From the NCBI GenBank assembly GCA_965230935.1, contig OZ246400.1, forward strand, positions 694,359 through 758,358: a DNA stretch of 64,000 nucleotides, given 5' to 3'. Made by a program: the position numbers and the translations under genes. Below the pieces are notes generated by a model that saw only the letters and a program-made list of their open reading frames with translations, made no database searches and was not told where the DNA came from. Each line of letters starts with the position of its first letter. Positions within the stretch are counted from its first letter, which is position 1. Positions 3,490 to 63,014 of the stretch are shown in pieces. The stretch comes from an uncultured Gammaproteobacteria bacterium. Its GTDB lineage: Bacteria > Patescibacteriota > Patescibacteriia > Magasanikbacterales > JBBTQS01.

Positions 3490-3518
3490 TTGACAAAATC
3501 GCTTTTTTGTGCTATAGT
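3490..3518 (+). promoter_or_regulatory. consensus sigma70 promoter (TTGACA-17 nt-TATAGT) for cassette A
   Basis: TTGACA at 3490-3495, 17 nt spacer, TATAGT at 3513-3518. GC-rich sequence begins immediately downstream. Confidence 0.55.
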
Positions 3519-3580
3519 ACGTGGTCGTTGGGTTGATCTCAGCGGCAGAGCCTCCCTTTGATAGGGAAAGGAGAACGTTT

Positions 3581-4046
3581 CGTGAAGACTTTCGAGTTCA
3601 ATTTCAGCGAGTCCGTGGCCTTCCGTCGGTTCATGCAGGAGCTCACCTGGCGCCGGGATTCCCTGCCCCTGAGTGACCTGTTCGAGCGTACCGAAGGGAA
3701 CGGTAAGCGTCGTGAGTGGTTCAACCTCTCCAAGGTGGAGACGGGCGACATCATCACCTGCACCGTGAGGGAGTACTTCGTCGGCTTCGGGTTCAGCTAC
3801 CCCGATGGTGGCAGCGACTTCATCAACCTGACCGGCACGGACGTGATGGATCAGGACGACACCTGCCGGTACCGTGAGGTGCGGTTCTACGTCCAGGACA
3901 TGCCCCGCGGCGAGGACGAGCTCATGGCTACCGTCGTGGTGGCCAAACGAGAGCGCTCCTACGAGGACGGGGACACGACCCGCTACAACACCATCTGGGC
4001 CGTGGACCTCGTGTGCTGGGAGGGCGACTGGGCTCTGGACGGCTAA
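3581..4046 (+). CDS. hypothetical protein, GC-rich cassette A (155 aa from GTG; listed ORF starts at TTG 3558)
   Basis: About 60% GC ORF in a roughly 45% GC backbone. AGGAGA RBS 7 nt upstream of GTG 3581. High GC3 codon usage. No recognizable domain. Confidence 0.55.
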
Positions 4047-4103
4047 GCGCCGCTCCACGACTTCGCTCACGGCGCCGCTCAAGCATTCCATTTACCAAAC
4101 AAC

Positions 4104-4148
4104 ACGACGGCCGCCCCCATTTTACCCGGGAGCGGCCTTCGTTTTTTG
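4104..4148 (+). terminator. rho-independent terminator of cassette A
   Basis: Stem ACGACGGCCGC / GCGGCCTTCGT followed by T5. Preceded by CA-rich AACAACACGAC. Confidence 0.5.
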
Positions 4149-4168
4149 AACAGAATTGCGAGCGCGAA

Positions 4169-8838: not shown

Positions 8839-8876
8839 AAAGACCCTACTGCGTGTTGAAGCGCGAGAGGGTCTTT
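8839..8876 (-). terminator. hairpin terminator downstream of cassette gene B
   Basis: On the minus strand, stop codon, then CAACAACACACAACCACAA, then AAAGACCCT..AGGGTCTTT stem. Confidence 0.45.
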
Positions 8877-8893
8877 GTGGTTGTGTGTTGTTG

Positions 8894-10096
8894 TCAGGGC
8901 TCGTCGGTCTCCAGAGGTCCTGGGTAGAAGTTGATCCTCAGGGGGAACCACGTGCACTCGGCAGGGTCGCTGATAGGATCATCGGCCGTGGGGCAGATCT
9001 CTTCCAGCGTATTGCCGGATCGGAGCATCTCCGCGAGGTAGGCACGGTGCTCCTCGATACTTGGCGGTCCTTCGACCTTCACGACGATGTCTTGAGGAAG
9101 AGCGCCCTTGTGCTTGAGCTGTGAGACCACCTGCTCCAGTTGCTCAGGATCACCGGCTGCTGCCACGAGGGCTCGCGTGTCAGCATCTGAGAACTTGTCA
9201 GGATCCAGGGCGACGCACGCTTGCGGTTCCTGGGTCTCACCAGCTTCTTCAGTACCCTCTTGGGTGTCGCACCCGCTGAGGAACATGGATTGCATCTCCT
9301 CGTCAAGCTGGTGACGGCAGCCGGGGTTGAGTGCGGTGAAGAAGGTGAACGCCACGCTGAAGTGGTCTTTCAGGTACAGCTGGAGTTGGTACGACGTGTG
9401 CTTGAGAATATTGCACGCCTCATCACGCTCCCGAGCGGCTTGCGCATTGGAACCGGAGGCCGCATCCAGAGACTGCTCGATGAGGTCGTAGACCACCAGC
9501 CAGCCGCCTTCCATCTGGTTGGCGATGATTGCGCGAGTCAGGTCGCTCATCTGCGTCGGATCGCCCACTTCCTTTTGCTCGTCGATCGCCATGAGCATGC
9601 ATTGCTCAAGGCTCTCCAGTGGCGTCTCCTCAAAGGAACACGTGCACAGCGGGTGCGACGTGCCAAAGAGGGACAGGAGCATAACAGCAATGATCTCTTC
9701 TTTCGTCTCAGGCTTGGGCTCGACGGTCATGGCGCCGGAGACCACGCGCAGCAGTGCGGTGCTGCACAGCGCTTCCAGGTTGTCTTCCTGGTTACCTGCC
9801 GAGCGCATGATGTCCAGCAGCGCGTACCACGTGGCGTAGTCGTTTGCCAGTAGGAGCTGGGCGACCACGTGTGGCGTCTGCGGGTTCATCTTGTCCTCGA
9901 CCGGGGCGAGCAGCATCTTACGCACAGCTTGCATGCGCTCGAGCTTGTTCAGCTGCATGAGCTGCTCGTACGGGGTCGTGATGGTCGGCGCCTCGTCAGA
10001 CGAATCTCGTGGCTCCCAATCAGTGAGCCACAAGATTGTTCCTGCGAGGCCGATCAGGAAACCCAACGCCAAGGCGTTGAGTTGGAGTTTGGACAT
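8894..10096 (-). CDS. hypothetical membrane-anchored protein, GC-rich, paralog of the following ORF (cassette B)
   Basis: 400 aa, N-terminal TM. Shares motifs KLERMQxVR, DYATWYAL, SHPLC, GGW, FPGC and a C-terminal ICP..DPI..C with 10316..11494. About 60% GC. Own promoter TTGACA-17-TATGCT (10217-10245, minus strand) and GGAGGGG RBS. Confidence 0.6.
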   Translation of the reverse strand: MSKLQLNALALGFLIGLAGTILWLTDWEPRDSSDEAPTITTPYEQLMQLNKLERMQAVRKMLLAPVEDKMNPQTPHVVAQLLLANDYATWYALLDIMRSAGNQEDNLEALCSTALLRVVSGAMTVEPKPETKEEIIAVMLLSLFGTSHPLCTCSFEETPLESLEQCMLMAIDEQKEVGDPTQMSDLTRAIIANQMEGGWLVVYDLIEQSLDAASGSNAQAARERDEACNILKHTSYQLQLYLKDHFSVAFTFFTALNPGCRHQLDEEMQSMFLSGCDTQEGTEEAGETQEPQACVALDPDKFSDADTRALVAAAGDPEQLEQVVSQLKHKGALPQDIVVKVEGPPSIEEHRAYLAEMLRSGNTLEEICPTADDPISDPAECTWFPLRINFYPGPLETDEP

Positions 10097-10315
10097 ATGC
10101 CCCTCCAGAGGTAAAAGGTTGTGGTCTGTAGGTCAGCGCAATACACAATGCATCGCAGACCAATCAGTGTTGAGCAGTACTCAGCACGGTTGATGCACGA
10201 TTACAGACAACGATTCAGCATACACGATTTTTAGACGGTTGTCAAGATTGCGTAGTAATTAAAAAACGCCCGTAGCACGGAACGTTTTTCGTTGTTGGTT
10301 TGTTTGGAACGTGAC

Positions 10316-11494
10316 TTACTCCTTGCCCCTCACTGAGTAGGTGGTCATTTTTTGGGGCGGGCACTTCTCCGGCGTGCGGATCGGATCTTTCACCCCAGGG
10401 CAGATCTGCTCGATCGGTGCGCCTTGGCGTTTGAGCTGGATGAGCATACTGCGAAGTTCCTCAGGAGTAGTATCCTGCTCGGTCTTGATGAGCTGGCTTC
10501 GGTCCTTGGCACCAAGTTGGCGTGCCATTTCCTCGTCGCGCTGTGCATCGTTGTCGAGCTCCGCCAGCTTGTACAACATTGCCTCTTGCTCTTCGCGACA
10601 CGCTTGCTCTTGCGCTGCCTCACTCAGCTCACCCTCTTGAGCTTGCTCATCGGTCTCCTCAACCGGATCGCAAGTGAGGTCCTCGCTGAGCGTATCGGGA
10701 AGACCTTCTTTGCAGCCAGGAAAGAAGAGGGCGAACATGGCAAAACGCAAGCTGTACTCGTCAGCAGAGAGCGTGTTCAGTCTGCCAGCGACACGCCACA
10801 AAAACTCGCAGGTCTCTTTTTGCTGGGCATCTTCCCGCTTTCCGGAGGTGCCATTCTTCATGGCCGAGTAGACAGCTGACCAGCCGCCGACCATCTTGCT
10901 CGCCAGGATGTTGCGTGCGACCTCATCAATTACCGGGTCGAACTCGAGCGGGTTCTCTTTGTGCAATCGTTGCACCTCATCCTGGGTTTCTTTGCCGATT
11001 TGATGCGCCCAATCCGGGTAGTCCGGCAGCATGCACAGTGGGTGTGACCAGAGGTGAGTCACGATGCGCAAGTCATCCGGGACTCCTTGCGGATCGGTAC
11101 CTATGACCACGCGCATCAGTGCGATACACATGGGGTGGTCCAGGTCGATGCCGGTAGCTCCTGCCTGCTCCATGATTTCGTACAGGGCATACCAGGTGGC
11201 GTAGTCCTCGTTACGCAGCAGGTCGATAACCTCATGCGCAGCGCCGGGATCGTCCGGATCCCACTCCTTGGTGAGCGCCTCGCGCACGTGTTGCATGCGC
11301 TCGAGTTTGCTCATCATGGAAAGCGGCTTAGTTAGGTTCGAGCCGGCGTACACCACCAGCTGACTCTGGTAATAGGAGCGCACCGCGCTTCCCACACCGA
11401 GAGCAACCAGTAGTGCGATGATGACGATGGGCACTCTGCGCACCCACCGATGACGTTGCAAGAACGTCAAGTTTTTGGGTTTGCGAACGCTCAT
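10316..11494 (-). CDS. hypothetical membrane-anchored protein, GC-rich, paralog of previous (cassette C)
   Basis: 392 aa, N-terminal TM, same motif set as B. AGGAG RBS. Minus-strand 3' flank CCAAACAAACCAACAACG plus hairpin 10262-10289. Confidence 0.6.
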   Translation of the reverse strand: MSVRKPKNLTFLQRHRWVRRVPIVIIALLVALGVGSAVRSYYQSQLVVYAGSNLTKPLSMMSKLERMQHVREALTKEWDPDDPGAAHEVIDLLRNEDYATWYALYEIMEQAGATGIDLDHPMCIALMRVVIGTDPQGVPDDLRIVTHLWSHPLCMLPDYPDWAHQIGKETQDEVQRLHKENPLEFDPVIDEVARNILASKMVGGWSAVYSAMKNGTSGKREDAQQKETCEFLWRVAGRLNTLSADEYSLRFAMFALFFPGCKEGLPDTLSEDLTCDPVEETDEQAQEGELSEAAQEQACREEQEAMLYKLAELDNDAQRDEEMARQLGAKDRSQLIKTEQDTTPEELRSMLIQLKRQGAPIEQICPGVKDPIRTPEKCPPQKMTTYSVRGKE

Positions 11495-11652
11495 GTCACT
11501 CCTTCTCTCTCACGCGGTCGGGGTAATCGGGTGGTCGTAGCGGGGTATCAACAATAATATCCCAGACCAGATAGTATTTGGCGCGCCAAACAGTACCGAT
11601 CTGTAATATGACGTAACGTACGACCATACCCAGTTTAAACACACTTGTCAAG

Positions 11653-15946: not shown

Positions 15947-16516
15947 ATGGCTACTATTGAGTGTTTATACAAAAACGCGGTTGTTAAGTTTAGAGGTGAT
16001 CTATATGTTGTGGTTGAGTACCAGCATGTCAAACCAGGTAAAGGCGGTGCATTTGTAAAGACGAAGCTCAAGAGCATTAAGACTGGTGCTACAGTGGATC
16101 AGACGTTTCATGATGGAAATGATGTCGAAGCCGCAACAGTTGAGCGACGCAACCTTACATTTTTGTATGGGGATGATGATTTTGCCCACATGATGGATGC
16201 TGAGTCTTATGAGCAAATTCCAGTTGCCAAAGCCATGGTGGGCGACACGCTCAAGTTTATGACTGATGGGCAAAAGGTGATTGGAGTATTTCATGATGGA
16301 TCGGTGATCTCGATTGAACTTCCCAAACGCATGAAGCTCAAAGTAACCTCTGCACCTCCAGGAGCTAAAGGGGATACTGCGAGTGGTACAGCCACTAAAG
16401 AAGTGACGCTTGAGACAGGTGCAACAATACAAGCACCAGTGTTTATCAAAGAAGGAGAAACCATTGTCGTGAACACTGAAGATGGGACATACGCTGAACG
16501 GGCGAGTAAGGAGTAG
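15947..16516 (+). CDS. efp: elongation factor P
   Basis: KPGKGGAF signature loop. 189 aa. Confidence 0.9.
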   Translation: MATIECLYKNAVVKFRGDLYVVVEYQHVKPGKGGAFVKTKLKSIKTGATVDQTFHDGNDVEAATVERRNLTFLYGDDDFAHMMDAESYEQIPVAKAMVGDTLKFMTDGQKVIGVFHDGSVISIELPKRMKLKVTSAPPGAKGDTASGTATKEVTLETGATIQAPVFIKEGETIVVNTEDGTYAERASKE

Positions 16517-16530
16517 ATAGATTTATGTGA

Positions 16531-16567
16531 TAGCGTGAGCTTATGGCTCACGCTATTTTGTTTTTTA
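16531..16567 (+). terminator. rho-independent terminator of efp
   Basis: TAGCGTGAGC/GCTCACGCTA stem then T-run. Confidence 0.6.
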
Positions 16568-16585
16568 ATTTTTCCAAAAAGAAAA

Positions 16586-16745
16586 CGGCCCGACTGGTTA
16601 GCAGCAGTCTGGGCCGTCGTGTTGAGGTCACCCTGGGCGCGTCCTGGTAGGACAGGAACGTTCGAAGCGGGCGTCGAAACCGAGGGCCAAGAACAGGGAC
16701 TCGATCTGAGTTCCACCCCTCGTCCAGGGCAACCAGTCTGAACGG
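16586..16745 (+). ncRNA. candidate structured non-coding RNA (GC-rich multi-stem element, unknown class)
   Basis: Roughly 160 nt at about 62% GC inside AT-rich intergenic DNA, bounded by two terminators. Nested helices: GGCCCGACTG/CAGTC-T-GGGCC hairpin, long-range CCCTGGGCG(16631-39)/CGTCCAGGG(16721-29) with a G.U pair valid only on the plus strand, and internal hairpins TCCTG..CAGGA, GTTCGA..TCGAAAC, CGAGGG..CCCTCG. No convincing ORF. Confidence 0.35.
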
Positions 16746-16771
16746 TAGCATGATTGGCATGTATTGTCAAT

Positions 16772-16806
16772 ACAAAAAACGAGTGAGAAAGCTCGCTCGT
16801 TTTTTG
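16772..16806. terminator. bidirectional hairpin terminator (recA side)
   Basis: ACGAGTGAG..CTCGCTCGT stem flanked by A7 and T5. Confidence 0.5.
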
Positions 16807-16827
16807 TAAATCTAGTGTGACCCAGTA

Positions 16828-17907
16828 TTACGCAGTGGCCACTTCGTCCAACACGTCTGCAGTCTTCTTTTTACTTTTAGTGGGCTTAGTCTCGGTTTCT
16901 TCTTGCGCACCTTTTACCGCTTTAAGAATATCTTTGCGAATCATATCCATAAGTTTTGGATTCTCACGCAAGTACGTTTTTGCTTTTTCTCGTCCTACGC
17001 CAAGTTTTTCTTCTCCGTAACTGTAACTATTGCCCGCTTTGCTGATCACTTTATGGACGATGCCAGTATCGATCAAATCGCCAGCGATCGAGATTCCTTC
17101 ATTGTACATGATGTCAAACTCAGTGGTTCGAAATGGTGCCGCAACTTTGTTTTTCACTACTTTTACTTTTACGCGGTTTCCAATGATGCGCTCACCTTGC
17201 TTGATTTGTGCTCGGCGACGAATCTCGACTCGAACTGATGAATAAAACTTGAGTGCAGTCCCGCCAGTGGTTGTTTCTGGATTTCCGTAAAACACACCAA
17301 TCTTTATACGCGTTTGGTTGATGAAAACAACCACGGTTTTGGTCTTGTTTACAATTCCGGCCAGTTTGCGCAGTGCCTGACTCATAAGCCGTGCTTGCAG
17401 CCCAACATGACGATCTCCCATATCTCCTTCAATTTCAGCTTTTGGTACCAGCGCGGCTACTGAGTCGATCACCACCACATCAACAGCATTTGAACGAACC
17501 AGTGTTTCAAGAATCTCTAGCGCTTGTTCCCCGGTGTCAGGTTGTGAGATTAGCATTTCATCAACATTCACTCCAATCTTTCGTGCATAATCAGGATCGA
17601 GCGCATGTTCTGCGTCGACAAACGCTGCGGTTCCACCTGTCTTTTGTACTTCAGCAACAATATGTTGTGCTAAGGTTGTTTTCCCCGATGCCTCAGGGCC
17701 AAATATTTCAATAATTCTCCCGCGCGGAACTCCGCCAACGCCAAGTGCTAGGTCAAGAGACAAGCAGCCAGTGGATACGGCATCTACTTGTGCTGATTTT
17801 GATTCACCAAAGCGCATGATTGCCCCGTCACCAAAGCGCTCTTTGATCTGTGCAATTGCCACCTCGGCAGCCTTTTGTTTATCGCTCGTTTCAGTTGTTT
17901 TTGCCAT
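16828..17907 (-). CDS. recA: recombinase RecA
   Basis: GPEASGKTT Walker A, canonical RecA core, Lys-rich C-terminal tail. Confidence 0.95.
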
Positions 17908-18059: not shown

Positions 18060-18581
18060 ATGGGCAAGCATAACCGGCCAAAAGGTAAGAAAAAAGTGGG
18101 GGGAAAGAAGCAGTGCAAAAAGCCGCCCAAAAAACGCTCCAGTCCAAAGCGAAAACCCTATCGGTTTGCCGTGCCAACTCCAAAAGAGGGTGTTCGGGAG
18201 ATCGTGATTCAGCTTTGGCATGGGGACGAGTTGCTTGATCAAGAACCTCTTGATCTTTCAAGTTTTTTAATGTTGTCACTGCAACTTTCAAGCATTTTCT
18301 ATCGGTTGGCGGGGGAACATGTCCCCGTTATCTTGCAAGATGCCGTGGTCTCCCAAGGGATTGCGGTGTTCCAGACAACCTTAGACGCATACGAAAAACA
18401 GCGATTTCCGGATGAGAAAACGCGTCCTGCGATGCCGCAGATGAAGCTTCCGGTGATCACTCCAAAGGGGTCGTGCGTCGTAGAGTATGATGGTACGGAT
18501 CGGGAACCGACGTGTCACATGTCCGATGGAACCTTCACCTTGGAAGAACTCAAGGCGCTGAAAAAAAAGAAGCGCAACTAA
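18060..18581 (+). CDS. hypothetical protein with highly basic N-terminus (cassette L)
   Basis: 173 aa, about 52% GC. Own promoter-like TTGCGT-17-TAGGAT. 3' flank CTCACACAACCACTCGACGAACACACC plus hairpin and T-run, same layout as the other GC-rich cassettes. Confidence 0.5.
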   Translation: MGKHNRPKGKKKVGGKKQCKKPPKKRSSPKRKPYRFAVPTPKEGVREIVIQLWHGDELLDQEPLDLSSFLMLSLQLSSIFYRLAGEHVPVILQDAVVSQGIAVFQTTLDAYEKQRFPDEKTRPAMPQMKLPVITPKGSCVVEYDGTDREPTCHMSDGTFTLEELKALKKKKRN

Positions 18582-21703: not shown

Positions 21704-21744
21704 ATTGTCTACAGAAACAGTATAGCAAAAGGTAAATAAAAAAT

Positions 21745-22100
21745 CTCCTACTCAGGGCTGCGAATACGACACTACACACGATGTGTCAGACATGAGGAGA
21801 AGAGTTCAGGCAAAAGCCTGAAAGAGGAGAGAGTTTTCTTCTCAACTCGTGTTTGACGGGTGCATGTGCATTCGCAGCCCGGAAAAGGAGAAATTATGGA
21901 GAACTAAAAAAACGTCATGGCCCCTCCAAGGTAAGTATAGTATAGGGCTCACTGACGTTTTGTCAAGATTAGGTCCCACTTGTCAGAACAAGAGGAGCCG
22001 ACCGAATATATAAAGATCTATTTTTTGGCCGGTGTCTTGTTCTGGCAAGTGGGGAGAAGCGTCGCTTCCCCCGTTCGCGGGTTGAGATATCAATGCTTCA
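21745..22100 (+). other. structured intergenic region upstream of rpoB (candidate ncRNA or long leader)
   Basis: 11-bp long-range helix GGGCTGCGAAT(21755-65)/ATTCGCAGCCC(21870-80) enclosing hairpins. 19-bp inverted repeat CCCACTTGTCAGAACAAGA(21975-93)/TCTTGTTCTGGCAAGTGGG(22035-53) with one U.G wobble that works only on the plus strand. No ORF of 60 aa or more. Confidence 0.3.
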
Positions 22101-22748
22101 TTGTGTCGAGAAAGCGGCCCATAAGCCATTGCGCGTAACGATTATGTTCCCCCGTGTACGAGTATTTGGATTGCGCAGTGGCAGGGTTCGCGTCTCTTGC
22201 AACTGAAACACCTGTGGAGGGAGAAAAGATGGTGGCGATCATAGATCACCCCTTTCTCAAGCGGAGCACGCATAGGAGTAGCGAGAGCCAAGGCCCTCGT
22301 CAACCCTATTGTGGTTCCAAAATTGTGCCTTTTTATATGTATTGGGCACAACCTCTCTCCTCCACAGCTATCTCAGTAGATGAAATGTACGACCGAGCAC
22401 TATAGCATATCTGGTTAAATTTGTCAAGAGCATTACCCAAAGTAACTTAATTTTGTCAAAATCTGTGGATAATATGTGGTAATTTATACCTATTATATTT
22501 TCGTAGATTGATTTTTTCTCTAAAATTAAACAAATTTGTAATTTTCTTGACAACCTTCCCGAGATTTGACATGGGATAACAATTTAGCTATACTTACGCA
22601 CGACTCGCGGTTTTCCTCCCATTTAAGGAGTGGCTACTGCGTGCACGGGTGATCAAAACGCATGCAAACCCTGCAAATTCGTCCAAATTTAATGATTCGA
22701 TCTAAGTAAAAATGAAACCCCAAACCTTTCGGGGTATCTTTTTGTTTT

Positions 22749-31373: not shown

Positions 31374-31439
31374 TGTAGATTTTTCTCTAAAATCAACAAC
31401 ACCGCCACGTGGTGGGGTGTTGGTGGTTGTGTTGAGTTT

Positions 31440-32087
31440 TCAGTCGCTCTTGCTGGTGTAGTAGAGCTTACCTAGCAGGGCTTTTTGTTGTGCCTCGTCA
31501 AGTCCTCTGAAGAAGCGCATGGCTCCAGGGATCACATCACTCACGTGATGAGCGACCGTATTCTCCGGGAGCTCACCCACCGGCCACCAGCGAGCAGTCT
31601 TGCCTTTTTGGGGATGGCCAGCCAAGGTCACCAGGAATACGTGTGGATGTCCCCAGCCGCGGTCGTCGTCGATGAAGTGATCACTCGCAAGGGTGAAGTC
31701 CGAGATCTCGACCCCAAACTCACTCCGGCTCAGGCGGCTGACTACCGCCCGGTGATCCTCCCTGAATCGGTAGATCGACCCAGGGCAGTGCCACATGCCC
31801 CCGTAATGCGGGTCGTTGTCCGGTCGCAGGGCCATGAAGACCTCAATACGCGTCGCACGAGATCGCCCTCCAGCGTAGTAGCAACGGCGCAACGCCACTG
31901 CCTCGAACGCGCTGTACGGACGTACTCGCAAGAGCGCCTCGAACAACTCGTGCGAATGCTGTGCTGCCGGGTCAACTCGACCGAGCATCTCCATCAGCAA
32001 CGCTTCTTGATCAGCAGGTATGAGTTGCTGAACCAGATGCGCCACCCTGGATAGGCTTTCAACCAAAGCCAAATCCCTCCTTCTTGT
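31440..32087 (-). CDS. hypothetical protein, GC-rich (cassette D). Start uncertain (TTG/ATG near 32050-32093)
   Basis: About 60% GC ORF. Upstream minus-strand promoter TTGACA(32141-46)-17-TATGCT(32118-23) and AAGGAGGG RBS. 3' flank CAACACAACCACCAACACC plus palindrome CCACCACGTGGTGG. Weak Nudix-like PxxGGMWHCPGS segment, but no Nudix box. Confidence 0.5.
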   Translation of the reverse strand, partial: TRRRDLALVESLSRVAHLVQQLIPADQEALLMEMLGRVDPAAQHSHELFEALLRVRPYSAFEAVALRRCYYAGGRSRATRIEVFMALRPDNDPHYGGMWHCPGSIYRFREDHRAVVSRLSRSEFGVEISDFTLASDHFIDDDRGWGHPHVFLVTLAGHPQKGKTARWWPVGELPENTVAHHVSDVIPGAMRFFRGLDEAQQKALLGKLYYTSKSD

Positions 32088-32222
32088 ATTCAACCGGAAC
32101 TGCCGGCACAGGCAAGGAGCATACCATGGCGGTACGCTCCTGTCAATATAAAAGCAAAACCCGAGCCATAGCTGGCACGGGATGCGTTGTGTGTTTGTTT
32201 TGACTTGGAGATGGGCGCGTGG

Positions 32223-32954
32223 TTAAGCTCTTGCCTTAGTGATCGCCGGCATGACCTCGTCCTGCACGAACTGCTCTGGTGTCGGCACTTGGCTCCAGTC
32301 CGGATCCTCACCGATCGTCTCGGCCGTGAAGTTGGCTCGCGCGAGCGGCGTGTCGATCAGGCCAGGCTCCAGTAGTACCAGCTTGACCTTCCCACCATAA
32401 TACGCGATTGAGTGCGTGAGCAGTCCCTTGTGCCATTTACTGACTTGGCGCATGGAGAAGACGTATCCATGCTCGTTTTCCATGCGCGGGTCATCGTCAG
32501 CGAAGTTCGCCGCCTGGGAGCTGACGTTCACTATCACGCCACCACCACCTGTGTTGTACAACGCCAGCGAGAACATGTGACACATCATCACCTTGCTGAT
32601 GAAGTTCACCAGCTCGAGTCGAGCGATCACAGCCTCCTTGCCATCCCCATTGGGATTGTTGTCCCACATGAACATCCCGGCGGCGTTCACCAGAATGTCG
32701 AGACGTTTGGTTCGCGCATGCACTTGCGCGCCCAACCTCTGGATCGAGCACGGGTCAGTGACGTCTGTGATCATGATCGCGCCGTGCTGCTCTCCGCCTA
32801 CCGCCTCCAGCGTCTCTTGGAGTCGCGCCTCGTTGCGCGCCACCAGAAAGACAAAGTACCCGTCTTGGGCAAGCGCCACCGCAATGGCGCGACCGATGCC
32901 GCTTGAGGCGCCGGTGACCAGTGCGTATCGCATGGTTGGTGTTCCCTCACTCAT
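32223..32954 (-). CDS. short-chain dehydrogenase/reductase (SDR) family oxidoreductase, GC-rich (cassette E)
   Basis: TGASSGIGRAIA Rossmann motif, NAAG, downstream Tyr/Lys region. About 62% GC. 3' flank AAACAAACACACAACG plus hairpin plus U-run (32155-32215, minus strand). Confidence 0.8.
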   Translation of the reverse strand: MSEGTPTMRYALVTGASSGIGRAIAVALAQDGYFVFLVARNEARLQETLEAVGGEQHGAIMITDVTDPCSIQRLGAQVHARTKRLDILVNAAGMFMWDNNPNGDGKEAVIARLELVNFISKVMMCHMFSLALYNTGGGGVIVNVSSQAANFADDDPRMENEHGYVFSMRQVSKWHKGLLTHSIAYYGGKVKLVLLEPGLIDTPLARANFTAETIGEDPDWSQVPTPEQFVQDEVMPAITKARA

Positions 32955-33045
32955 ATGGTATTATGGGCGTGTCGAAAAGATTAAGCGATCACTTAACTAT
33001 CCACGCAGTACTTTTAGCCTACCTGGCGTGGTACTGTCTGTCAAT

Positions 33046-33973
33046 AACTAATATGTTAGACCTTGTCATTGTTGGTGGCTCTGCCGCTGGAACTGCAGCG
33101 GCCGTATACTGCGCGCGACGCAAACTTAATTTTAAAGTTGTGGCTAAGGACCTCGGCGGTGAAGTTGCCACCTCTGGTGAGATTGAAAATTACCCTGGAA
33201 TCAGCCATACCACCGGAATAGAACTTTCCAAACAGTTTAATGAACAACTCAAATATCAAAATGTTGATGTTGAAACCGGGGTTATTGTAGAGAAGATCGA
33301 GCAGATCGAAGGCGGATTTCGTGTGACTGGAAAATTAGGTTCAGAAGAAAAGATTTATGAAGCAAAGTCAATCATTGTCGCAACCGGCTCAGAACCGCGC
33401 CATCTTGGGGTTGAAGGAGAAGAAGAATTTGCACACAAGGGAATCACCTATTGTACTGTCTGTGATGGACCGTTGTTTAAAGGTAAGACAACCGTGACTA
33501 TTGGAACTGGAAATTCAGCGTTGGAATCAGCATTGATGATGGGAGAGATTGCCCAAAAGCATTATGTATTGGCAAAATACCCAGAGTTTAAAGGTGAGCA
33601 AGTGTTGATCGACAAGGTAACCGCGCACAAAAATATTGAAGTGATTTATCAAGGGATGACCACCAAGGTTACCGGCGATGGTCTGGTGAGTGCAGTACAC
33701 TACACTGACAAAGATGGTAAAGAGCACAAGTTGGATGTGCAAGGAGTTATGGTGCACATTGGATTGCTCCCACAAAGTGAATTTATTGATTGTGTTGAAA
33801 AAACCAAGCGCGGGAACATCATTGTTGATCGTCTTGGTAAGACGAATTGCCCAGGAATTTTTGCCGCAGGAGATGTCACTGACATTCCATATTTACAAAT
33901 TGGTGTGGCAACAGGAATGGGTATTGCGGCAGCGTTATCGGTGATTACGTATTTGAATACGTTGGCAGAGTAA
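33046..33973 (+). CDS. trxB: thioredoxin-disulfide reductase-like flavoprotein
   Basis: FAD motif LVIVGGSAAGTAAAVY, redox-active CTVCDG, NAD(P) motif. Backbone-like GC. Start at ATG 33046. Confidence 0.8.
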
Positions 33974-34025: not shown

Positions 34026-34110
34026 ATATTGACAATTGAGAGAAATTGATATAGTGTCGCATCAGACAGGAGTCACTGAACCAATACAGGACGTTATCGA
34101 GGAGGGAATC

Positions 34111-34779
34111 ATGCCACAGGATCTCACGTGGCAGGAGTGGTTGGCAGCGTACCGAGCTAACCATGCAATGGAGGTACGTCGATGTACGTTGGGTGCTCTG
34201 GCACAGGGCATCCCGCAGGACAAATCCCACACGGTGTGGCGCATGCAGCCCAGTGAGGTGTTTGGTCGCGAGGATGGCGCGTTCTTTCATTTGACCGGAG
34301 CGCGCATCAGCTTGCGAGGAGGCGAGCGTGAGGTTGCTGCTTGGTCCCAGCCCATGCTGGTCGAGAGCGGTGAGGGGCGCGTGGTTTTGCTGCGTCGCGG
34401 GATAAGGTATTTGCTGCAGGCCAAGCTCGAGCCAGGCAACCCCGTGTCCGGCAATCGCGTACTGATTGCACCGACGATCCAAGCATCAGAGTCGAATCTC
34501 GCACAGAAGCACGGCGGTCGTCGCCCGCGTCACGCCGAACGACTCGACACTGCGGATGGTCCGCGTTGGTACAAGGCTCCTCAAGATGGTGGTCGGTTTG
34601 ACCAGAAGGTCAACCAGTATGCGGTTATCCCGGCAGGTTCTCGTCCGATTCAGATCGATCCAGATTCAGAGCGCTGGTTCGACGTCAACGAGCTGGCCGA
34701 AGTGATCGTCTCTGGTGAGGCCAACCAGCATCTGCGTGAGGCTTTCGGTTTTATTTGGGCCGCTGAGTACATGGAGTAA
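34111..34779 (+). CDS. hypothetical protein, GC-rich (cassette F). Possibly NDP-hexose 2,3-dehydratase-like single repeat.
   Basis: AGGAGG RBS 6 nt before ATG 34111. Promoter hexamers TTGACA(34029)/TATAGT(34050) with a 15 nt spacer. Segments LLQAKLEPGNP and APTIQASESNL recalled as resembling the hexose-dehydratase family (from memory, not verified). Followed by (CACAA)n 34779-34803. Confidence 0.55.
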   Translation: MPQDLTWQEWLAAYRANHAMEVRRCTLGALAQGIPQDKSHTVWRMQPSEVFGREDGAFFHLTGARISLRGGEREVAAWSQPMLVESGEGRVVLLRRGIRYLLQAKLEPGNPVSGNRVLIAPTIQASESNLAQKHGGRRPRHAERLDTADGPRWYKAPQDGGRFDQKVNQYAVIPAGSRPIQIDPDSERWFDVNELAEVIVSGEANQHLREAFGFIWAAEYME

Positions 34780-34832
34780 CACAACACAACACAACAACAC
34801 GACCCGAGCATAACTGCCGGGCCTTGTTTATA

Positions 34833-34861
34833 TTGACAATTTTTGCGCGAGAGCATATACT
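34833..34861 (+). promoter_or_regulatory. consensus-like promoter TTGACA-17-TATACT for cassette G
   Basis: Shares the 14-mer TTATATTGACAATT with the promoter of cassette F (34024-34037 vs 34828-34841). Confidence 0.5.
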
Positions 34862-34902
34862 GCCGCTTCCAGCTATGATGGCTGTGAGAAGGGAGGAGAT
34901 AA

Positions 34903-35739
34903 ATGGCTGACGAGATAAACTCCGAACAGGAACGGATAAAACAGCAGGCGCTTACGCGCGTACGAAGTACCTCGATTGCGCAGTTGCGCAATACTCCACC
35001 ACTAGTCGTAGCGGTTGTGCTTTTGGAGACTCGGCTCGGTGGGCTGGAGGGGTGGGATATCCCCGAGGAAGTCCGAGAAGACCTGACACAAAAGCGTCGA
35101 GCGCTCGCACAGGCAATGCAGCGCCCGGGCCACCACAGTTATGTGGGGATGTATCTGCCATATCGTGATCCAGAAGGACGCGAGCGATGGGTGCATTTTG
35201 GGACGCAGTACATGCGTGATGTCAAGAAGACACGCTCCGGACTCGCTGCACTGATCAATCATGGCCGTCCGTGTACCGACGCATTGCGAGACTTGTTGGC
35301 TGAGTTTGTAGACTCCTGTCCCAACGAGGAAGGAGACATTTACTTGGTTGACACCCGTCTTCGTGCCATATCCTCAGATCACCTACCGTATCATTGGGAA
35401 TTCGGTTTGCACATCGCGTTACTGGTAGCGCGCGAACAGGCCGGAAGAATTATGTCGCGGTGGGTAAGTCTGAGTAAGCGCTGCCCCCTGATTCCGTTGG
35501 CAGATGCTGCACCGGACATCTGGCTCGTATTTCGTGAACGAGAAGAGGAGGGATTTGTCCAGGAGGCGTTGGCGGGTGAGAATCTCCAGGAGATCGCGGT
35601 TGAGGATGGCGTAGATGAGATACTCGCGCTTCGCCCTCAATGCCGGCACGTCGTGGTCATGGTGGACACTCCGGCGCAGGCCGCGGCAGTAGTCATTGAG
35701 ATCGGGAGACGGGTGCTCAACGCGCGTCTTACTCCATGA
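34903..35739 (+). CDS. hypothetical protein, GC-rich (cassette G)
   Basis: 278 aa. GGGAGGAG RBS. About 62% GC. Followed by CACACAACACAACAACC (35745-35763) and hairpin plus T6 (35766-35798). No recognizable domain. Confidence 0.55.
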   Translation: MADEINSEQERIKQQALTRVRSTSIAQLRNTPPLVVAVVLLETRLGGLEGWDIPEEVREDLTQKRRALAQAMQRPGHHSYVGMYLPYRDPEGRERWVHFGTQYMRDVKKTRSGLAALINHGRPCTDALRDLLAEFVDSCPNEEGDIYLVDTRLRAISSDHLPYHWEFGLHIALLVAREQAGRIMSRWVSLSKRCPLIPLADAAPDIWLVFREREEEGFVQEALAGENLQEIAVEDGVDEILALRPQCRHVVVMVDTPAQAAAVVIEIGRRVLNARLTP

Positions 35740-35840
35740 CTCCGCACACAACACAACAACCAAAATCCGCTCATTCGAGGACTCGATCAGGCGGTTTTTT
35801 GATCTTAAAATTTACTCAAATTATGCTATACTATTAATAT

Positions 35841-48916: not shown

Positions 48917-48987
48917 GCGGGTATGGTGTAATGGTAACACGAAAGGTTTCCAACCTTTTGATGCGGGTTCGATTCCCGCTACCCGCT
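48917..48987 (+). tRNA. tRNA-Gly (anticodon UCC)
   Basis: Cloverleaf: acceptor GCGGGTA/TACCCGC, D-arm GTGT-AATGGTAA-CAC, anticodon stem AAAGG/CCTTT with loop TTTCCAA, T-arm GCGGG-TTCGATT-CCCGC. CCA not encoded. Confidence 0.85.
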
Positions 48988-56673: not shown

Positions 56674-56743
56674 GGGATATTGTCATAATTAAAACAACCT
56701 CGTCCTGGTGAGGAAGAGGTTGTTTTGTTGTGCTGTTGTGTTA

Positions 56744-57407
56744 TCACTTCATGAAGAAGCGTTGTGCGTTCTCGCCGACCACTCGTCGAATCTGCCACTC
56801 CTCCAGTCCGTGCGCGAGCAGGGAGCGGATCAAGGTCTTGAAGCAGTCTGCGACCGTGTGGCAGCCGGGTAGACGCCACTCGTCCAGAATGCCGCCGTAG
56901 TCGGTACCGATCCCTACCTGGAGCCACTCGCTGGCTTCTCCGAGCTCCACCAGATGCTCGATGAAGGGGCCATCCAGTCGCTCGTAGAATGGCTTTGCAG
57001 GAGAGAGGCACACGATGCCGCCGAGCTGGATGATCTCACGTGCCAGATGCATACTCAGGCACCGATCGTAGTTGCCATTTCGCAGTAGCGGGTTGACCAC
57101 TTCACTGTGCTGTACACCACCGTGGGTGTAACACAGTGGCGGCGCGCCTCCCCAGTGCCAGTATCCAGCATCTTTTAGGGTGTAACTCAGTGCGGATGAC
57201 CTCCACCTCGGCTTTGTGGGCGGGCGTGGTCTTGGGATAGGTTCCATCCCGTTCGCAGAACAGGACGCGCAAGGCGCCACCGAGCTGGTCCATGTTGGCG
57301 AGCTGTTCGGCAGACCCCCATCCGCCGCTCTGCTCACCATACTGATCCAGATGTGCGTCAAAGCACATAAACGGACGGTCATACCCGTCAATGGTGATTC
57401 CAGGCAC
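56744..57407 (-). pseudogene. amidohydrolase-2 (PF04909-like metal-dependent hydrolase), frameshifted and shortened, GC-rich (cassette J)
   Basis: GTG start with AAAGGAGG RBS. N-terminal metal-binding FDAHLD in one frame. H.GG (LCYTHGG) and GIGTDYGG (metal-binding Asp) plus C-terminal ENAQRFF in the +1 frame. Frames switch near 57190. 3' flank TAACACAACAGCACAACAAAACAACC plus hairpin 56690-56735. Confidence 0.5.
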
Positions 57408-62290: not shown

Positions 62291-62333
62291 TTGATCTGCA
62301 GTTTTGGATAGTTGGGGTTTCAAAAATACAAAA

Positions 62334-62359
62334 GCGGCCGGCAGTTAACTGCCGGCCGC
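62334..62359. terminator. perfect 11-bp hairpin terminator (GCGGCCGGCAG-TTAA-CTGCCGGCCGC)
   Basis: Flanked by A-run on plus and T-run on minus. Ends the minus-strand K operon. Confidence 0.55.
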
Positions 62360-62458
62360 TCTACTATCTAAAACAATTTGCGGAAAGTTGACCGCACGCT
62401 CTCGTTTCCGATGCGGGCGGTCGGGTGTAGGGTTGCGGCTCATGGCCGCGTGCGAGTT

Positions 62459-62719
62459 TCATGGCTGTTGCTCCTTGACGGTACTCCAGGCCACGGTGTT
62501 GAAAAGGATACTGGGCGGGGCATCGGTCGCCGGTGCCAGCGGCGTGTCGGGTCGCGGATCAGTGGTACTCTTGGCTTCGCGTCGTGGGATCGGGTCGGGG
62601 TGATCGAGCGCATCAGCGATGCAGGCCTCGACGGTGGTGAGATCCAGACAGCGAGAGTCAAGGGTATCAGCGATCATGGGCCAGTACGCGAGCGCGTAAC
62701 AGGCTGGCACGACCAACAT
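62459..62719 (-). CDS. small membrane protein with Pro-rich C-terminus, GC-rich (cassette K, second gene). Start uncertain.
   Basis: Hydrophobic segment FFWVSMLVVPACYALAYWPMIA. 65% GC. Directly downstream of the zinc-ribbon gene. Confidence 0.35.
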   Translation of the reverse strand: MLVVPACYALAYWPMIADTLDSRCLDLTTVEACIADALDHPDPIPRREAKSTTDPRPDTPLAPATDAPPSILFNTVAWSTVKEQQP

Positions 62720-62783
62720 GCTTACCCAGAAAAACCAGTCTTGAAAAAAGCGTAGCAGGTCTTTGAGAACCTCCGTGACGGCC

Positions 62784-63014
62784 CTTACGCCGCCTGATTG
62801 GCCGCTCGGCGTTCGGCATAGAACGCCTGGCGAGCCTGCCATTGGTCGAAACGGCGGCGAACGCGCCGGCACCCTGCGCAATGCTCTCGACCGTTGCGGT
62901 CGAAGAACATGTTGTTGCAGCGCGTCGAAGCGCAAATCCGCTTGGCCATTCCACGCATCTGGATACGGACGAGCTTGCCGTCCGGTCCCCGTTTGAGGTC
63001 GAGCTTAATGCCCA
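62784..63014 (-). CDS. small zinc-ribbon protein (CxxxC...CxxC), GC-rich (cassette K, first gene)
   Basis: 76 aa (MGIKLDLKRGPDGKLVRIQMRGMAKRICASTRCNNMFFDRNGREHCAGCRRVRRRF...). AAGGAG RBS 4 nt before ATG 63014. Arg-rich. Confidence 0.5.

Follow-up and report, generated by a model that had tools for sequence, protein, structure and literature searches.

The GC-rich element in the gap between efp and recA is read here, with roughly even confidence, as the gene of an orphan minus-strand RNA of about 160 nt, independently transcribed from its own promoter to its own terminator. RNA polymerase would initiate near 16737-16734 at a sigma-70-type promoter, made up of TTGACA (16770-16765), a 17-nt spacer and TGcTACCGT, would transcribe some 160 nt at 64% GC on the minus strand, and would stop at a strong hairpin and U-tract at 16618-16576. 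The predicted product has no credible coding capacity, and its 5′ end would pair just before the terminator, in an 11-bp helix enclosing a few GC-rich hairpins. As to its origin, the unit may be a cut-down member of a set of GC-rich cassettes, built of promoter, CA-rich tract and terminator, that are scattered through the genome. All coordinates are those of the window, that is, the whole 64-kb stretch of DNA that was analysed.

We infer transcription of a minus-strand unit since the promoter, the edges of the GC-rich block and the terminator agree with one another, and the plus strand carries no comparable promoter. This reading draws support from the enrichment of the promoter pattern in the window, from a terminator hairpin with its U-tract on the minus strand only, and from a closing helix that begins at the predicted 5′ end; the lack of a coding signal, the lack of a match to any known RNA family and the reproducible assembly support it further. 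It is weakened by a poor −10 hexamer, by a core fold that is unexceptional and slightly better defined on the plus strand, and by the lack of a homologue both in five relatives, at the syntenic position, and in some 0.9 Mb of related, efp-linked and recA-linked loci searched by blastn, nhmmer or a covariance model.

Locus, putative promoter and predicted terminator of the element

The convergent genes efp (15947-16516, plus strand) and recA (16828-17907, minus strand) are separated by 311 bp, and the rpsF-ssb-rpsR cluster lies upstream of efp. The original prediction had placed a GC-rich element of about 160 nt between the efp and recA terminators, and this description stands: GC content is 63.8% over 16586-16737, with 14% in one flank (16558-16585), 38.5% in the other (16738-16776) and 46.2% across the whole 64-kb window, and both terminators are found by the consensus terminator scan. 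The features of the gap are as follows.

16529-16568, plus strand: efp terminator, a 13-bp stem (hairpin 16529-16557) with a T-run, unidirectional in the consensus terminator scan
16576-16618, minus strand: predicted intrinsic terminator of the minus-strand unit, stem 16618-16584 with one bulge, −21.9 kcal/mol, and U-tract UUUUCUUUUU at 16585-16576
16619-16737, minus strand: GC-rich body of the predicted RNA, with an 11-bp closing helix around two or three hairpins and then the linker CUCAACAC, in both the MFE and the centroid structure
16631-16729, plus strand: plus-strand fold, with a 9-bp helix (16631-39/16721-29) closing hairpins 16641-54, 16660-94 and 16696-714
16742-16750, minus strand: putative extended −10 element TGcTACCGT (TG at 16750-16749, hexamer at 16747-16742), with a 17-nt spacer to the −35 hexamer
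16765-16770, minus strand: putative −35 hexamer, reading TTGACA, directly past the U-run of the recA terminator
16771-16806, listed on both strands: recA terminator (hairpin 16777-16800), with symmetric A-run and T-run and apparently bidirectional

Counted by a regular-expression scan of both strands of the 64-kb window, TTGACA-N16-18-TAnnnT occurs at 18 sites, compared with 2.46 ± 1.4 (maximum 6) in 100 dinucleotide shuffles, and a −10 element follows at the correct spacing after half of all 36 TTGACA hexamers. Nearly all of the sites lie upstream of genes, for example rpsF, rpoB and the GC-rich ORFs, which argues for a real promoter code in the source organism; we read it as an unusually clean sigma-70 code of the form TTGACA-N16-18-TAnnnT. 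The TGn extension is present at six of the 18 sites, the one at 16770 (minus strand) included (TGCTATAGT, TGCTACACT and similar). The −10 hexamer of the element, TACCGT, is itself weak. On the plus strand at the element the same regular-expression scan gave no match to the genome's promoter pattern.

The start predicted from this promoter, 16737-16734, falls at the very edge of the GC-rich block, where GC content steps from 38.5% to 63.8%, and at the other end it drops to 14% past the terminator stem. Only in the minus direction does UUUUCUUUUU follow the hairpin at 16586-16618; on the plus strand an A-run precedes this hairpin and no T-run comes after it. Because the T-run is confined to the minus side, the hairpin is best taken as a minus-strand intrinsic terminator. 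It is absent from the listing of the consensus terminator scan, probably owing to a bulged A. Of the signals that mark a small RNA gene, both a promoter directed into the element and an intrinsic terminator on the same strand 50-300 nt downstream were found.

The sequence is present on a 102-kb ENA contig and on a 931-kb NCBI contig, and the element is identical in two samples that were assembled independently, so that the assembly is reproducible. The source is a member of the Patescibacteria (CPR). The named relatives found through RecA are mostly Candidatus Magasanikbacteria; the best non-self RecA in a search of 5.8 billion proteins is 85% identical.

Two Logan contigs (L082 and L083, from runs ERR2281801 and ERR2281800) both stop exactly at 16660, inside the element, and have different ends on the other side. 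The shared stop could reflect a branch in the assembly graph or a drop in coverage. Logan contigs from the source genome are generally fragmented and also break within ordinary genes, for example at about 18260, and for that reason the ends at 16660 are weak evidence of a repeat.

GC-rich cassettes and the contents of the gap in relatives

The window holds at least seven GC-rich ORFs (57-60% GC) in a genome of 46% GC, most of them without Pfam domains. The regions concerned, with example ORFs, are listed below together with the one site that matches the element exactly.

3490-4150, plus strand: GC-rich gene region (ORF 3582-4046)
34029-34830, plus strand: GC-rich gene region
34833-35800, plus strand: GC-rich gene region (ORF 34903-35739)
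8850-10245, minus strand: GC-rich gene region (ORF 8894-10096)
10260-11651, minus strand: GC-rich gene region (ORF 10316-11494)
31380-32146, minus strand: GC-rich gene region (ORF 31440-32093)
32160-33044, minus strand: GC-rich gene region
56700-57391, minus strand: GC-rich gene region
16612-16624, minus strand: 13-mer CAACACGACGGCC of the element, running into the terminator stem and identical at 4100-4112, in the pre-terminator of cassette 3582-4046 (plus strand)

A perfect TTGACA-N17-TAnnnT promoter precedes most of these islands, and each cassette gene carries a tract of 16-25 nt, 94-100% C+A, between its stop codon and its intrinsic terminator (e.g., CACAACACAACACAACAACACGACC, CAACAACACACAACC). 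A pure CA tract is absent from native, AT-richer genes such as efp, recA and 32921-33973, and several others have weaker CA-rich stretches. Taken together the GC-rich genes look like a family of acquired expression cassettes with a common 3′-end design. For one of them, a 215-aa ORF at 56744-57391 (minus strand), similarity to the Peptidase_M19 model is confined to the final third (profile positions 213-317 of 319) and stays under the gathering score; this ORF may be a truncated acquired gene.

The element shares with the cassettes a perfect TTGACA promoter, often with TGn, a body of about 60% GC and a CA-containing tract before the terminator. Unlike the cassettes, which encode proteins of 154-400 aa, it has a body of only about 110 nt with no translatable gene, and its CA tract is much shorter: a brief CAACAC runs into the terminator, and the best 16-nt window reaches 75% C+A, compared with 94-100% in true cassettes. 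A single exact match such as that of the 13-mer is expected at roughly chance level in the window (BLAST E 0.46). The likeness of the element to a cassette in miniature is thus suggestive, not conclusive. Nevertheless, since the promoter type and the 13-mer are common to the element and the protein-coding cassettes, the unit may be a decayed gene and not an RNA gene, and the resemblance means that a cassette in decayed or truncated form has to be taken seriously as an alternative to a purpose-built RNA gene.

In its fullest form this alternative, the main rival, holds that the element is a non-functional remnant of foreign or GC-rich cargo at a variable hotspot, giving an RNA without selected structure or function. 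A cassette that had undergone an internal deletion would be left with a promoter, an ORF stub with its stop codon, a short CA tract and a terminator, and might still be transcribed. We consider this unlikely, yet it deserves real weight. The abundance of GC-rich ORFs in the window, most islands with the TTGACA promoter and each ORF with a CA-rich pre-terminator tract, fits such an origin, as do the shared promoter type and 13-mer. An open minus-strand frame through the element ends in a TGA (16630-16628) that lies 4 nt upstream of the 13-mer and 10 nt before the terminator stem, as the stop codon of a stub would, and the stability of the fold is typical of the genome's GC-rich coding sequence. 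Set against this, no frame of the element has a protein homologue, no start codon is accompanied by a Shine-Dalgarno sequence, GC content is not biased by codon position, the CA tract falls short of those of the cassettes, and the 13-mer match is about what chance would give.

The relatives add to the case for cargo. The sampled clade is small: the EF-P search of 5.8 billion proteins returned only four sequences at 68-74% identity, the next being at most 52% identical, and the RecA and EF-P searches of these proteins together point to only about five sampled members, with RecA at most 85% identical. The relatives brought up by EF-P in scans of genome and metagenome collections were all at 50% identity or less. 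We compared the loci of all five nearest relatives and of the nearest RecA relatives, which are distant from the source genome. The rpsF-ssb-rpsR-efp and ftsK-HTH-recA blocks are conserved among them, and the efp-recA gap, where it is retained, holds other sequences in the five sampled relatives, as follows.

L164: two hypothetical ORFs
L168 and L304: an antitoxin and ParE pair; in L168 additionally a complete diversity-generating retroelement (DGR)
L302 and L303: an 88-aa gene with its own TTGACA promoter
L168, 5201-7289 of contig CAZVIA010000004.1: the DGR, with an RT fragment (RVT_1 ORF, 170 aa) and bAvd, adjoined by the ParE-type toxin pair
L168, 6088-6217 and 6557-6686: TR and VR of the DGR, 130 nt and 90% identical, the VR at the 3′ end of a 246-aa target gene

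From these loci the efp-recA gap reads as a variable hotspot, and the unrelated cargo that it holds in relatives speaks for the remnant explanation. No homologue of the element was found by blastn or nhmmer in the window or in the relatives' loci, and the same held for a covariance model built from the single minus-strand core (R1) and run with filters off on the window and on some 0.9 Mb of related, efp-linked and recA-linked loci. Searches of phage and plasmid databases were empty, and two scans of viral contigs gave only chance matches of 15-18 nt. Homologues with compensatory base changes were likewise absent from the loci compared, those of the five nearest relatives included. Conservation in related genomes, on which the original prediction had staked its refutation, was thus not seen: the five relatives (EF-P 68-74%) differ at the locus, the relatives being distant. 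The minus-strand unit would most likely represent an orphan small RNA specific to the source lineage.

On the other side of recA, between it and the HTH_25 gene, lies a gene for a 173-aa protein without known domain (18060-18581, plus strand) whose N-terminus is strongly basic (MGKHNRPKGKKKVGGKKQCKKPPKKRSSPKRK...). In relatives L165, L168, L295 and L297 recA and the HTH_25 gene are direct neighbours. With this extra gene on one side and the element on the efp side, recA has lineage-specific insertions on both sides.

Folds on both strands and coding potential

Both strands can fold into a multi-helix junction. On the minus strand the closing helix has 11 bp, pairing GGUUGCCCUGG at 16734-16724 with CCAGGGUGACC at 16636-16626, and it starts at the predicted 5′ end. 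The plus-strand MFE structure equals the centroid (−50.6 kcal/mol), and the 9-bp helix closing three hairpins described in the original prediction is indeed found in both. The hairpin at 16586-16618 is not simply one more plus-strand helix, being read as the minus-strand terminator.

For the 122-nt core the z-score is −2.1 on the plus strand (2 of 200 shuffles are as stable) and −1.7 on the minus strand (10 of 200). GC-matched 122-nt windows drawn from the genome's GC-rich genes are at least as stable in 10% of cases when compared with the plus fold and in 13% when compared with the minus fold. The frequency of the MFE structure in the ensemble is 0.14 on plus and 0.04 on minus, so the plus fold is slightly better defined. 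Over 186 nt the z-scores are about −2.9 and −2.8, values that probably owe much to the terminator hairpin, itself −21.9 kcal/mol. The core fold is only marginally better than chance and is unexceptional.

These values bear on a second alternative, in which the functional molecule would be a structured plus-strand RNA with a 5′ hairpin at 16586-16618 and a four-way junction at 16631-16729, ending at the hairpin shared with recA and produced either by transcription past the efp terminator or from a weak promoter. The better defined plus fold (MFE equal to the centroid, ensemble frequency 0.14, z −2.1) is consistent with it, and the recA terminator does have a T-run on the plus side too. It is nevertheless improbable: the genome's promoter pattern is not matched here in the plus direction, the 13-bp terminator of efp is strong, and the proposed 5′ hairpin is the minus terminator, with an A-run before it and no T-run after it on plus. 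The original prediction had relied on a G.U pair to fix the plus strand, an argument that proves symmetric, as wobble pairs occur in the folds of both strands, two on plus (16637/16723 and 16698/16712) and seven on minus with its alternative 11-bp helix. Its further suggestion that a plus-strand RNA is processed from efp read-through gives way to a putative promoter and terminator belonging to the minus strand.

As proposed originally, the element has no credible ORF; the list of open reading frames shows only short or overlapping frames, GC content does not vary by codon position, and the protein searches agree. All six frames, concatenated, had no match at E ≤ 10 among 5.8 billion proteins. 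A full HMMER pass of the most gene-like frame, 47 aa on the minus strand, against 1.84 billion representatives gave three weak matches (E about 1e-4), which we dismissed as internally repetitive or spurious proteins with scores summed over repeats.

It would also be conceivable, with very low probability, that the minus-strand transcript encodes a very small protein, through a frame of 34 codons running from TTG at 16732 to the TGA at 16628 on a nearly leaderless mRNA. This frame is open right from where the RNA is predicted to begin, and its stop codon stands 10 nt ahead of the terminator stem. The start, however, would be UUG without a Shine-Dalgarno sequence, an open frame of such length is roughly expected at 62% GC (an estimate from stop-codon frequency, not a computed value), there are no homologues among the 5.8 billion proteins or the 1.84 billion representatives, and there is no codon-position bias.

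Equally improbable is a small repeated or mobile element of MITE type, for which CCCTGGGCG/CGTCCAGGG would be the inverted ends, or a DGR template repeat left as an orphan. A relative does carry a complete DGR at the same locus, and its template repeat (L168) resembles the element in being a GC-rich non-coding island of 100-150 nt within an AT-richer Patescibacteria genome and in lying in the recA-efp gap. The end of two Logan contigs from different runs at 16660 could also be cited, though as noted such a break carries little weight. Unlike the DGR of L168, the element has neither RT nor Avd nearby, no variable-repeat copy in the window, and no similarity to the TR or VR of that relative; a tblastn search of the window with the RT, Avd and target protein of that relative was negative. 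No second copy of the element, full or partial, was found within the 64 kb, and a target-site duplication is absent.

Comparison with known RNAs and other features of the window

The original prediction had matched the element to none of the RNA classes that could be judged by eye, and the searches bear this out. Against Rfam 15, which takes in SRP RNA, 6S RNA, tmRNA, RNase P, riboswitches, self-cleaving ribozymes, HEARO and other families, the gathering threshold is reached in the whole window only by a tRNA-Gly at 48917; with the cutoff relaxed to E ≤ 10, the region 16450-16900 gives only terminator hairpins or chance matches far below gathering scores. Inspection of both strands shows no SRP domain IV motif (a GNRA tetraloop with a conserved AGCA strand after it). 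A hint of a tRNA T-arm (TCGAGTCCCTG) was rejected, as ARAGORN and the Rfam tRNA model gave nothing and the matching acceptor strand is absent.

The element is similar in size to 6S and small SRP (4.5S) RNAs, is likewise GC-rich relative to its genome, and its 5′ end likewise pairs with a 3′-proximal segment; it differs in being a multi-helix junction and not a rod with a central bubble. We specifically rejected 6S RNA, as the folds are multi-branch junctions instead of a rod of about 180 nt with closing stem, large central bubble and terminal loop, and Rfam gave no 6S match. A parallel in gene organisation is provided by stand-alone bacterial small RNAs that run from a sigma-70 promoter to a Rho-independent terminator, e.g., trans-acting RNAs of the RsaE/RoxS type. 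Like these, the element has its own signals and lies between convergent genes, measures 100-200 nt, lacks an ORF, and ends in a hairpin with a U-tail. Unlike them, it has no family or homologues and no evident unstructured seed region, and it is a predicted unit only. To our knowledge, little has been done to characterise small RNAs in bacteria of the Candidate Phyla Radiation.

A scan for targets against translation-initiation regions in the window found none that was convincing, the single 13-nt complementarity being at chance level. A riboswitch-like alternative was also set aside, since making the 5′ end (CAGACUGGUU) pair with the terminator's 3′ arm carries a penalty of about 13 kcal/mol (−57.9 compared with −71.1), there is no downstream gene on the minus strand, and no terminator/anti-terminator pair of comparable energy was found.

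The original prediction had offered a novel small RNA, a ribozyme or a mobile element. A small non-coding transcript remains plausible, on the minus strand. Nothing supports a ribozyme, a riboswitch or a mobile element; the fold is unexceptional, and no further copy of the element was found in the window. If the minus-strand RNA is functional, a regulatory RNA acting in trans or a protein-binding RNA is in our view more likely than a ribozyme or riboswitch. That it should be a structured, lineage-specific regulatory RNA founding a new class, or the smallest, non-coding member of an undescribed family of GC-rich cassettes taken up and expressed by these reduced genomes, is a more ambitious view and one we would call quite unlikely.

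The main value of this work is a corrected annotation, in which strand and ends are revised and one "helix" is reassigned as a terminator. As a small-RNA candidate well delimited by a clear promoter and terminator, the element is a useful target for metatranscriptome mapping. It is an orphan of a single genome with an unremarkable fold, and it does not open long-standing questions. The promoter code and the GC-rich cassettes with their CA tracts may be of more interest than the element itself.

Two other regions of the window were noted. An island at 62326-62990 (660 nt, 68-70% GC) has overlapping ORFs on both strands with no Pfam, NCBIfam or PHROG match, and is bounded at 62326-62367 by a loopless, near-perfect palindrome of 21+21 nt (86% complementary); Rfam matches to the island are all sub-threshold. 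In the 1-kb gap between ftsK and rpoB (21704-22748), the ftsK promoter (21966) is preceded by another strong promoter on the minus strand (22427), and this second promoter probably drives a Cys-rich 69-aa ORF (22351-22142) preceded by GGAGGAGAGAGG.
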